Assembly: GCA_964473865.1 (NCBI GenBank)
Contig: CAYYQN010000003.1
Span: forward strand, 2,545 to 66,544
Direction of reading: 5' to 3'
Length of the DNA stretch: 64,000 nucleotides
Origin: an uncultured bacterium
Lineage (GTDB): Bacteria > Eisenbacteria > RBG-16-71-46 > CAIMUX01
The notes under the pieces: model-generated
The model's input: only the letters and a program-made list of their open reading frames with translations
The model's database searches: none
What the model was told of the DNA's origin: nothing
Translations under genes and position numbers: made by a program
Shown: positions 1,648 through 22,246 of the stretch, piece by piece
How positions within the stretch are numbered: position 1 is the stretch's first letter
Layout of the letters: each line of letters begins with the position of its first letter

Positions 1648-3945
1648 ATGCGGATGACATTCCAGAGCCTGGCCTCGCATGTCGCCCTTCGCCGCTGGCC
1701 GCTGGCCACCGTTGTCTGGTTCTCCTGCATCCTCTTGATCGCGTCGCCCCGGATCGGCCGTGCGGCGCTCCTGCACCTCAATGTGGTGAACGAGCTGGGG
1801 CAGGGCATCCCGGCCCGCGTTCAGGTGCTCGATGGGCTCGGGGACTACTTCCCCGCCGACACCTGCTCCAGCCTCATGAGCCACAACGACTCGGCCTGGA
1901 TGCGGGCCTACTTCTATTACCAGGAGCCGCTTCTCCTGTCCCTCTGCCCCGGTGTGACCACGATCACTGCCGGTCACGGCTTCGAGTGTCGCCCGGTCCG
2001 GATCAGTTTCAACCTGCAGAACGATACCACTGTCACCGTCACCATTCCGCGGGTCTATGATCTGCGGTCGCTGGGTTGGTTCGGCGGCGATACGCATACC
2101 CACATGGTCCATCCTCCGCAGGACTACCTCCTGACGCCCGCCGACATGCATACAATCGCCCAAGCCGAGGATCTCCCCATGACCTGGGTGACCGACAACG
2201 AGTACAACTTCACCGGCAGTCCGGACGTCGTGAGCACCCCCGATGCCATCCTGTACTTCAGCGTTGAATATCACAACAAGGCCACTGGGCACGCCTGCAT
2301 GCTCGGGCTGAAGGAGATCTTCGCAATCGCCTGCTGCGGGGTGCCCGCTGCCGCGTACCCGCTGCTGTCGGACACGAGAGAGGAGTGGAATCCGGGCTGG
2401 GACGAGGCCATGACCCTTTGCCACCCGATCAGCGGCGCCGACTTCTTCGATGACTCGGTAGGATGGCCGGCCGCCGGGCTGGCCCGCGAAGTCCCGGTGC
2501 AAGCGGCCAGCGGGAACCTGGACATCTACGACATTGCCTCTTACAGCAACGTCGGGGACCTTGCGCTGGATGACTGGTACCGACTCCTGAACTGCGGCTA
2601 CCACATCCCACCCGGCGCCGGTACGGACGCCATCATGGACCGGTACTGGGTGCGACCGGCCGGCGGATACCGGGTCTACGTGAAAGAAACGAGCACGTCG
2701 CACAATTCCTCCGATTGGGTCCAGGGGCTGAAGGCGGGGCGGTGCTTTGTCACCAACTACCCGTTGATCCCGGAGTTCACGATTGACGGCCAGGATGCCG
2801 GGAGCACGCTGGACTACCCGGGTCCCACGGCCACGGTCTCCGTTCACCTTGCGGTCGAGTCGACCCTGCCGGTCTCCACCGCCAAGATCATTGTGAACGG
2901 CGAGGTCGCGCAGACCTTTGACGTTCCCGGCGGTCCCGACGGCTCCTCTGGCGTCTTTGACACGCAGCTCACAGTGAACAAAAGCTCCTGGATCGCCGTG
3001 CGCGTGGACGGCGTCACGGATCTCCGTCACGCGGTTTCGAACTCGCTCTTCGCGCACACCGGACCCATCTATGTCCGCCTGGGCGGGTTGGAGATAGAGC
3101 GGACGATCGACGCCGCGTACTTCCAGGACTGGTGCGATTCGCTCGAGATCTTTGTGGAGAACCGGGGCAATTGGCCGAGCGAGGAAGCGCACGCCCATGT
3201 GCTGCAACGGATCGATGACGCGCGCGTGACATTCGGCAGCCACTTCCTGTATCCACCGTCGGCTTTCGAGCTTCTCGCTCCCGCCAACGGGGCGGTCGCG
3301 CTGGAAGGCGGGCTCGTGCACTTCGATTGGTCGGACGCCACCGTGAGGGAGCCGGGCGACCGGGTCCGGTACCGTCTCGCGATCAGCGCAGACACGTCGT
3401 TCGCCGGGGGGTATCTCTCCCCGCCCCTCAGCTCCAGTCGGCGGATCATGCCGGTGCCGCTTCCGCCCAACCAGGCATACTGGTGGCGCGTGGTGGCAGA
3501 GGAGAGGGGCGGGCATACGACTCCGAGCACGCCCCGGCGGCGGTTGTTCTACCTGGCGACCAGCATTTCGGACGTGGACTCGCTGCAGACGGGGGGCGAC
3601 TCCCCGAGTCTGACCACGGCAGCGTTGTCGGTCTGGCCCAACCCGGCTACCGACCAGGTACACCTGCAGTGGAGTCAGGCGGCGGGCAGCCCCGGGGACT
3701 TCGAGATCTTCGACGTGGGTGGCCGCCTTGTTCTCCGCGTGCATTCCGTGATCTCCTCGGCCCTCACCGCGAACGCGGCGGGCGGTCCCTCACTTTGTCC
3801 CACCGGGACATGGGAAGGATTCGATGCGGGAGGCCGCGCGGTGCCCGGAGGGCTCTATTGGGTCCGCTACGTCCCGGCGGGATCCGCGGCTGCGTACGAA
3901 GCCGGCGGCACCGCTTTGCGGGCCCGGATCCTGCTTCTGCGCTAG
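1648..3945 (+). CDS. secreted metal-dependent hydrolase-like protein (PHP/CehA-like GGDTHTHMVHP motif) with T9SS-type C-terminal sorting domain
   Basis: GGAGG at 1641-1645 precedes an ATG at 1648. The N-terminal signal/TM segment is LATVVWFSCILLIASP and the central motif is GGDTHTHMV. The C-terminal ~75 aa (WPNPATDQVHLQW...GRLV...GGLYWVRY) match the Por/T9SS CTD consensus. A TATAAT hexamer sits at 1582-1587 upstream. Confidence 0.7.
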   Translation: MRMTFQSLASHVALRRWPLATVVWFSCILLIASPRIGRAALLHLNVVNELGQGIPARVQVLDGLGDYFPADTCSSLMSHNDSAWMRAYFYYQEPLLLSLCPGVTTITAGHGFECRPVRISFNLQNDTTVTVTIPRVYDLRSLGWFGGDTHTHMVHPPQDYLLTPADMHTIAQAEDLPMTWVTDNEYNFTGSPDVVSTPDAILYFSVEYHNKATGHACMLGLKEIFAIACCGVPAAAYPLLSDTREEWNPGWDEAMTLCHPISGADFFDDSVGWPAAGLAREVPVQAASGNLDIYDIASYSNVGDLALDDWYRLLNCGYHIPPGAGTDAIMDRYWVRPAGGYRVYVKETSTSHNSSDWVQGLKAGRCFVTNYPLIPEFTIDGQDAGSTLDYPGPTATVSVHLAVESTLPVSTAKIIVNGEVAQTFDVPGGPDGSSGVFDTQLTVNKSSWIAVRVDGVTDLRHAVSNSLFAHTGPIYVRLGGLEIERTIDAAYFQDWCDSLEIFVENRGNWPSEEAHAHVLQRIDDARVTFGSHFLYPPSAFELLAPANGAVALEGGLVHFDWSDATVREPGDRVRYRLAISADTSFAGGYLSPPLSSSRRIMPVPLPPNQAYWWRVVAEERGGHTTPSTPRRRLFYLATSISDVDSLQTGGDSPSLTTAALSVWPNPATDQVHLQWSQAAGSPGDFEIFDVGGRLVLRVHSVISSALTANAAGGPSLCPTGTWEGFDAGGRAVPGGLYWVRYVPAGSAAAYEAGGTALRARILLLR

Positions 3946-22246: not shown

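Follow-up and report, generated by a model that had tools for sequence, protein, structure and literature searches.

A probable type IX sorting domain, closest to that of PorU, on six exported proteins of an Eisenbacteria-like bacterium

Why do six different secreted proteins, encoded close together in one bacterial genome, all end in the same domain, and does their proximity make them one regulated unit? The genes lie at positions 1648-22246 of a 64-kb stretch of contig CAYYQN010000003.1 (assembly GCA_964473865.1, from an uncultured bacterium); this whole stretch is referred to as the window. A preliminary description of the DNA took the shared tail for a type IX secretion system (T9SS) sorting domain and the genes for a co-regulated cargo island. 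Here we find that the tail is probably (at roughly 65%) a T9SS-type sorting domain resembling the C-terminal domain (CTD) of PorU, borne by six probably Sec-exported proteins of what appears to be an Eisenbacteria-like bacterium.

One C-terminal domain on six different proteins

The six tail-bearing open reading frames (ORFs), numbered P1 to P6 by position, are present as described and translate with no internal stops:

P1, 1648..3945, plus strand: exported CehA/McbA-family (HxH) metallohydrolase with tail, 765 aa (NF038032 150 bits, cut-off 80)
P2, 3963..5420, plus strand: purple-acid-phosphatase-like metallophosphoesterase with tail, 485 aa (Metallophos 49 bits, Pur_ac_phosph_N 28.6 bits)
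P3, 6591..7760, minus strand: probable beta-propeller protein with tail, 389 aa (SGL 17 bits, sub-threshold)
P4, 9139..10707, minus strand: right-handed beta-helix protein with tail, 522 aa (Beta_helix 43 bits)
P5, 12711..13901, minus strand: YWTD/LDL-receptor class B beta-propeller with tail, 396 aa (Ldl_recept_b 77 bits, SGL 29.6 bits)
P6, 19814..22246, minus strand: GH44 glycoside hydrolase with tail, 810 aa (PF12891 218.8 bits)

Their tails are homologous and 84-104 aa long (E values from hidden Markov models, HMMs, of the tail):

P1 tail, 3631..3942, plus strand: 104 aa, exceeding the others in length and divergence and bearing two loop insertions (~20 extra residues); E 8.7e-15
P2 tail, 5166..5417, plus strand: 84 aa; E 1.3e-20
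P3 tail, 6594..6848, minus strand: 85 aa; the copy used for the structure model
P4 tail, 9142..9405, minus strand: 88 aa; contains GRAVSSGIYF, source of the peptide for the metagenome scan
P5 tail, 12714..12968, minus strand: 85 aa; E 2.8e-26
P6 tail, 19817..20086, minus strand: 90 aa, with PCPF in place of PNPF; E 1.3e-19

An HMM built from the six tails (the last ~95 residues) and run against all six-frame ORFs of the window retrieved exactly P1-P6. A second HMM, for which 89 external homologues supplied most of the sequences, again retrieved exactly these six in the window (E 1e-15 to 1e-28). With the family HMM, no seventh tail ORF was found in the six frames of the window, the next best match having E 1.8. 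The claim that one domain closes six different secreted proteins is thus borne out.

The domain is strictly terminal. In P2-P6 the alignment to the family HMM reaches the last or second-to-last residue; in P1 the alignment to the six-tail HMM runs to the last residue, and that to the family HMM ends 19 residues earlier. Measured against the P3 tail, which heads the alignment, identity is 26-39%. Invariant throughout are P..P close to the start, the glycine of (D)xxG(R)L, a second glycine, a tryptophan, three further glycines, a tyrosine and an arginine. The motif proposed earlier, which runs from PNPF through GRLV and WDG to a closing arginine, is a fair consensus with exceptions in P6 (PCPF), P4 (PNPT), P3 (GELV), P5 (GRRL) and P1 (WEG). 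Each tail holds 0-2 lysines and 7-12 arginines, and its last five residues include an arginine, or a lysine in P6.

In front of this tail stand six different modules. Five of the module assignments of the preliminary description are matched by profile hits, while the SGL-like propeller of P3 stays below threshold (17 against 26 bits). To call the modules unrelated was slightly overstated, as there is a weak alignment between the propellers of P3 and P5 (28% over 152 aa, E 0.011). P6 also scores 367 bits against the EpsB model, under the equivalog cut-off of that model. A functional theme of phosphate scavenging plus glycan degradation had been suggested as well; P2 and P6 speak for it, and the other four proteins provide no such indication.

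All six proteins begin with a signal-peptide-like segment: 12 aa with a mean Kyte-Doolittle value of 2.2-2.7 follow 1-6 lysine or arginine residues. By the same heuristic of hydrophobicity and charge, which is not a dedicated predictor, the cytoplasmic neighbours TrmB and GNAT score below 1. To this extent the heuristic supports the Sec signal peptides claimed for the proteins as putative ones, in 6/6.

Type IX sorting signal or FlgD-type module

What is the tail? An AF2 model of the P3 tail, computed from an alignment of 95 sequences (pLDDT 98), has seven strands arranged as a compact 3+4 immunoglobulin (Ig)-like beta-sandwich, as in solved T9SS CTDs. When the model was searched with Foldseek, the query TM-score was highest for PorU (0.75). 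Structure comparison of the model gave the following scores:

PorU CTD: 12.3 (88/90 residues, root-mean-square deviation 1.9 A)
Generic Ig/MG domains of unrelated proteins: about 10
Mirolase CTD: 10.0
PorZ: 9.7
FlgD: 9.4 (73 residues only)
NucA CTD (substrate-bound T9SS complex): 8.9

Based on this model, the tail is predicted to be a seven-stranded Ig-like beta-sandwich whose closest solved relative is the PorU CTD.

The sequence points in the same direction. The six-tail profile matches the PorU CTD among PDB sequences at E 1.3e-6 over profile positions 2-76, PNP strand included, with weaker matches to the CTDs of PorZ, mirolase and RgpB (RgpB only at the last strand). In the NCBIfam search the tails also match the C-terminal domains within the PorU and PorZ models; for example, the P5 tail matches PorU model NF033707 in its CTD region at E 2.7e-6. 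The printed alignment gives the Porphyromonas gingivalis PorU CTD as PNP...IYDFTGRLV...WD....G.....G.Y.YR. Since it holds WD..G..G.Y, a FlgD-looking motif exists in a verified T9SS domain. The invariant glycine of (D)xxG(R)L aligns with GRLV of the PorU CTD. In P. gingivalis, the glycine of the beta3-beta4 loop (motif L-beta3-beta4) and the C-terminal strand are required for export (PMC11285876), and by alignment to the motifs of that study the tails have both this glycine and, in their last strand, a basic residue.

The CTDs of PorU (P. gingivalis, 6ZA2) and PorZ (5M11) are likewise seven-strand Ig-like sandwiches at the extreme C-terminus, and the PorU CTD has the motifs PNP, YDxxGRLV and WD..G..G.Y..R in common with the tails. 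These two CTDs are uncleaved and belong to machinery components, whereas here the domain ends six different enzymes, propellers and a beta-helix protein. PorU and PorZ also have an extra beta-hairpin of their own after strand 5 (PMC11285876), compared to just seven strands in the P3 tail model, and they come from Bacteroidota rather than from an Eisenbacteria-like host. Type A cargo domains (TIGR04183/PF18962) resemble the tails in their C-terminal position behind diverse Sec-exported cargo, in the PNP first strand, in the beta3-beta4 loop glycine and in the basic residue of the last strand. They differ in that Bacteroidota tails are Lys-rich and the window tails Arg-rich, and the latter carry a FlgD-like WDGxDxxG and score 13-20 bits on the type A models, under the cut-offs.

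Several results weigh against a type IX role. None of the six tails reaches the cut-off of PF18962 (27 bits; best 20.5 bits in P1, through the N-terminal PNP strand alone) or of TIGR04183 (23 bits; best 20.4 bits in P4), so the search with these two models that the preliminary description had proposed left all six below the curated thresholds. The best Pfam match is FlgD_ig (PF13860, gathering cut-off 27 bits), which is over the cut-off in P3 (37.6 bits), P4 (32.7 bits) and P5 (31.6 bits), below it in P2 (22.2 bits) and P6 (25.8 bits), and has no match in P1. Among PDB sequences, FlgD chains are the top matches of the six-tail profile (E 3e-9), ahead of the PorU CTD. The T9SS core genes (SprA/Sov, PorV, PorU, GldK/L/M/N) are absent from the 64-kb window, and none was seen in any retrieved locus of relatives. 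In other proteins the family forms internal tandem arrays, and it is therefore not only a signal. Finally, NCBI taxonomy does not list the phylum under the FCB group, and the literature searched does not link T9SS to Eisenbacteria. T9SS may occur in FCB phyla other than Bacteroidota (PMC11285876).

Could the tail then be an Ig-like module of the FlgD type that has a structural or binding function, such as attachment to cell surfaces or polymers, and that is terminal by chance, with no type IX role? The Pfam and PDB rankings, the tandem repeats and the lack of core genes in the window all favour such a module, but we consider it unlikely. The tails share the core (I)xDxxGxxV...WDGxDxxGxxxxxGxY with the Ig-like domain of hook-cap FlgD (PF13860; 7EH9, 3OSV), yet an N-terminal FlgD domain is reported in 0/6 proteins, and full-length FlgD models matched over the Ig-like part only. 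The flagellar context is missing too, with no flagellar genes among the window ORFs scanned.

The position of the domain also argues against a plain binding module. We scanned metagenomes with GRAVSSGIY, a peptide found in P4, and obtained 80 loci with a total of 678 kb. In these loci 107 of 113 tail domains stop precisely where the ORF does; a binding module would have no such restriction to the C-terminal end. The local tail HMM counts 2-15 internal tandem copies per protein, and the library search matched as many as 23 stretches. Based on the top-scoring proteins of the family search, internal copies (n = 994) cover HMM positions ~11-79, with the PNP strand rare and the last strand absent, whereas terminal copies (n = 25) cover positions 3-90 and have the PNP strand in 24/25. 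In terminal copies the fold is thus supplemented by the PNP strand and by the final strand, a pattern to be expected of a signal. It is these extra strands, and the domain as a whole, that match the PorU CTD best.

The phyletic pattern adds to this. On plasmids of cultured organisms, full-length matches are found in Rhodothermus, Salinibacter, Hymenobacter, Adhaeribacter, Chondrinema and Runella; they are confined to Bacteroidota and Rhodothermota, and two matches outside the FCB group cover the core only. The match on the Rhodothermus marinus plasmid closes an annotated coding sequence. Such a distribution of full-length copies is a further point against a FlgD-type module without type IX role.

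The tail is one of the commonest metagenome domains, its family counting 536,294 representative clusters at E <=0.001. In most database homologues PF18962 and PF13860 match together, and the NCBI names of these proteins are either 'T9SS type A sorting domain-containing' or 'FlgD immunoglobulin-like domain containing'; some occur in Krumholzibacteria. The preliminary description had itself allowed that the tails might match the FlgD Ig-like family with no secretion role. The first half of this is correct, with FlgD_ig the best match and 3/6 tails over its cut-off. The second half does not follow, because FlgD_ig and the T9SS models overlap on this tail family. Among the large tail-bearing proteins of the metagenome loci, 7/8 exceed the TIGR04183 cut-off, at 27-41 bits. 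Accordingly, the window tails are by sequence divergent members of a continuous family that extends as far as genuine type A domains. The shift from lysine to arginine plausibly explains why they score low on the type A models. The call of a T9SS-type sorting domain thus stands as regards the PorU CTD match and the homologues that pass TIGR04183, and falls short as regards the type A cut-offs.

The same data bear on another possibility, namely that the tail does serve as a sorting signal, but for export or anchoring at the outer membrane by a route unlike the canonical Bacteroidota T9SS: either a distinct 'FlgD-type' CTD class that stays uncleaved as a surface anchor, or a different machinery. 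We regard this as distinctly improbable. It would fit the non-cleaved state of the closest solved relatives, the CTDs of PorU and PorZ, and the WDGxDxxG motif, which is common to the tails and FlgD and not to cleaved cargo CTDs such as RgpB. It would also fit the sub-threshold type A scores and the literature searched, which has no T9SS record, experimental or otherwise, for the phylum. However, the family grades into tails that pass TIGR04183 and into domains that PGAP names type A, as it does for the Runella homologues. The composition shift would account for the low scores, and no candidate for an alternative machinery was seen.

Type B T9SS CTDs (TIGR04131/PF13585 CHU_C) are C-terminal T9SS signals as well. 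According to a review (PMC11611037), those of Cytophaga hutchinsonii sometimes go under the label FlgD_ig superfamily, and some database homologues of the tail carry a precomputed PF13585 match. In the window, by contrast, the only trace of CHU_C is in P5 (E 0.061; 13.9 bits compared to a cut-off of 27), and no PorP/SprF-like gene adjoins any of the six genes.

We looked for machinery in the retrieved loci. There are no SprA candidates, the metagenome loci holding no non-tail ORF of at least 1300 aa, and a screen of all loci for the FGE-sulfatase motif (GldK-like) found nothing. Two proteins of 1240-1270 aa that combine a C25 peptidase with the tail (locus L097) were considered as PorU and rejected at 72-75 bits, compared to the PorU cut-off of 420. 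A compact C25-plus-tail gene (locus L172) was rejected as PorU as well, its catalytic domain being closer to gingipain R. The C25-plus-tail proteins cannot be called T9SS components, and none comes from a verified Eisenbacteria genome.

The compact gingipain-like C25 gene, which bears the same tail, has one peculiarity of its own: it is split by a single in-frame TGA (L172:9242-9244). The gene is found in three assemblies:

L172:8474-9865, TGA-split C25 gene
L173:1086-2564, TGA-split C25 gene
L174:568-1959, TGA-split C25 gene

The TGA is kept in all three, one of which differs at 4/1388 nt. In L172 it lies 36 residues past the histidine of SHG and aligns exactly with the catalytic cysteine of gingipain R (lpvvlgrgC / lpfifdvaC). 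This codon is a candidate selenocysteine active site. The hairpin downstream of it was no better than in shuffled sequences (z -0.62) and does not support a SECIS element.

If the tail is a type IX sorting domain, the six modular extracytoplasmic proteins would leave the cytoplasm via Sec. The folded CTD would then be recognised at the outer membrane by an SprA/PorV-type T9SS translocon, and the cargo would be released or retained on the cell surface. The tail may be cleaved and the protein anchored by a lipid, as in gingipains, or it may stay on, as in PorU and PorZ.

Density and regulation of the six genes

The preliminary description had also read the locus as a dedicated cargo island, unusually dense and co-regulated by a sugar-responsive regulator in its middle. 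The regulator is there, between P3 and P4 and on the same strand as both, and a palindrome lies ahead of P3:

7995-8906, minus strand: TrmB-family transcriptional regulator, 303 aa (PF01978 55.9 bits, PF11495 23.5 bits)
7846..7855: perfect 10-bp palindrome CTATCGATAG within TACT-N10-AGTA, downstream of the TrmB gene and ~90 bp upstream of where P3 starts

We estimated the background density from five loci of related genomes (114 kb) that were chosen via DnaE2 or GyrB, regardless of tails. They contain 9-10 tail genes, that is 0.08-0.09 per kb or ~1 per 11-12 kb. At this rate ~5-6 tail genes are expected in the window, compared to 6 observed. The 20.6 kb stretch itself has ~3 times the background (6 observed, ~1.6-1.8 expected), with a Poisson probability of at least 6 genes of ~0.006-0.01, which is nominal, as the region was picked after seeing the cluster. 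The rest of the window has no tail genes because it is conserved origin-proximal housekeeping DNA. Runs of tail genes are also routine elsewhere: 20/31 metagenome loci of at least 10 kb have at least two, and one locus (L167) has four in 23 kb. The claim of an unusual density therefore reduces to a mild excess within 20.6 kb.

Co-regulation fares worse. The six genes lie on both strands and are interrupted by unrelated DNA: a GNAT gene, TrmB, ~1.9 kb of gene-poor sequence, the gene for an error-prone DnaE2 and two TPM-domain genes. The shared word upstream of the cargo genes is just the ribosome-binding-site-like GGGAGGA, no better than in shuffles. P1 and P2 are the sole pair that is close enough to look operonic, and, as P2 starts 17 bp past the P1 stop by their coordinates, they are probably co-transcribed. 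The palindrome has AT-rich surroundings, is unique in the window and occurs upstream of P3 only; a single occurrence of TACT-N10-AGTA is not above chance (at least one match in 51/100 shuffles). It may act as a TrmB operator, and then for P3 only. An identical P3 protein is found on a 3.2 kb Logan contig, where it also adjoins TrmB.

The neighbourhood of dnaE2 is not conserved in relatives at 66-79% identity. A scan of genome contigs with the window DnaE2 gave at most 67% identity among the matches listed. Tails occur in just two of 80 loci anchored on dnaE2 (1.4 Mb), most of which bear the labels of other phyla, in line with the phyletic pattern above.

A three-fold local excess, the embedded TrmB gene and the palindrome ahead of P3 would suit a dedicated island under TrmB control. 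Against it stand the background count of the window as a whole, the runs of 2-4 tail genes elsewhere, the two strands and the interruptions, the single palindrome and the lack of conserved synteny, and we find such an island very improbable. The six genes are not one regulatory unit, and the cluster reflects a high genomic frequency of tail genes in the lineage together with a modest local excess.

Two features between the six genes merit description. The polymerase III alpha-like gene at 14607-17975 (plus strand) is of the error-prone DnaE2/ImuC type, its homologues being named 'error-prone DNA polymerase'. In relatives, an ImuB-like (PF00817) gene lies upstream of dnaE2: in L168 directly, via a small ORF, and in L165 with an ABC transporter on the opposite strand in between. 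The window has P5, on the opposite strand, as its nearest annotated upstream gene. The ~1.9 kb at 10860-12700 has no convincing gene: its long ORFs are Arg-rich junk with no Pfam or NCBIfam match, and a minus-strand frame at 11221-12144 has a Calx-beta-like stretch. This region may be a decayed gene.

Genomic setting and significance

The window is GC-rich (60-70%). Its GyrB is 71-77% identical to proteins labelled Candidatus Eisenbacteria at NCBI, and metagenome relatives reach 79-92%; judged by these protein matches, the host appears to be an Eisenbacteria-like bacterium. The window includes the replication-origin region with dnaA, dnaN, gyrB, gyrA, ileS, yidC and parAB, and the cumulative GC-skew has its minimum near 50-52 kb:

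43378-46614, minus strand: ileS, same strand as dnaA, dnaN and gyrB
46675-49539, minus strand: gyrA, same strand as dnaA, dnaN and gyrB
49540-57977: origin neighbourhood, with dnaA, dnaN and gyrB on the minus strand and yidC on the plus strand
53471-54856, minus strand: dnaA
60336-62097: parA and parB, beyond yidC

Rfam and tRNA scans across the 64-kb window were empty. A scan for promoter and terminator consensus sequences gave 0 promoters and fewer terminators than in shuffles, which is uninformative.

Beyond P6, the ORFs at 22425-24509 (minus strand) and 23690-25570 (plus strand) overlap; the pair consists of a radical-SAM ORF and a heparinase II/III-like gene.

The heparinase-like protein has a signal-peptide-like N-terminus and lacks the C-terminal tail. 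The longest radical-SAM ORF (Rv2578c family, match starting at residue 297) shares ~800 bp with this gene, and its real start is therefore probably much later. Further on, 25686-30830 (minus strand) encodes a very large UvrA-like protein (1714 aa) that combines two DNA-binding domains of UvrA with several ABC ATPase modules and resembles a UvrA paralogue that has been duplicated or fused.

Taken by itself, the cluster gives no hint of a new system; its local density is just mildly over the lineage background. If the tail is a T9SS sorting domain, predicted type IX cargo would extend to the Eisenbacteria (Eiseniibacteriota), a candidate phylum that is uncultured and has no T9SS on record in the literature searched. 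For members of the group with high GC, the standard T9SS tail models would then under-call cargo that FlgD_ig catches instead, and counts of secreted hydrolases in such genomes would be wrong unless FlgD_ig and the T9SS models are both used.

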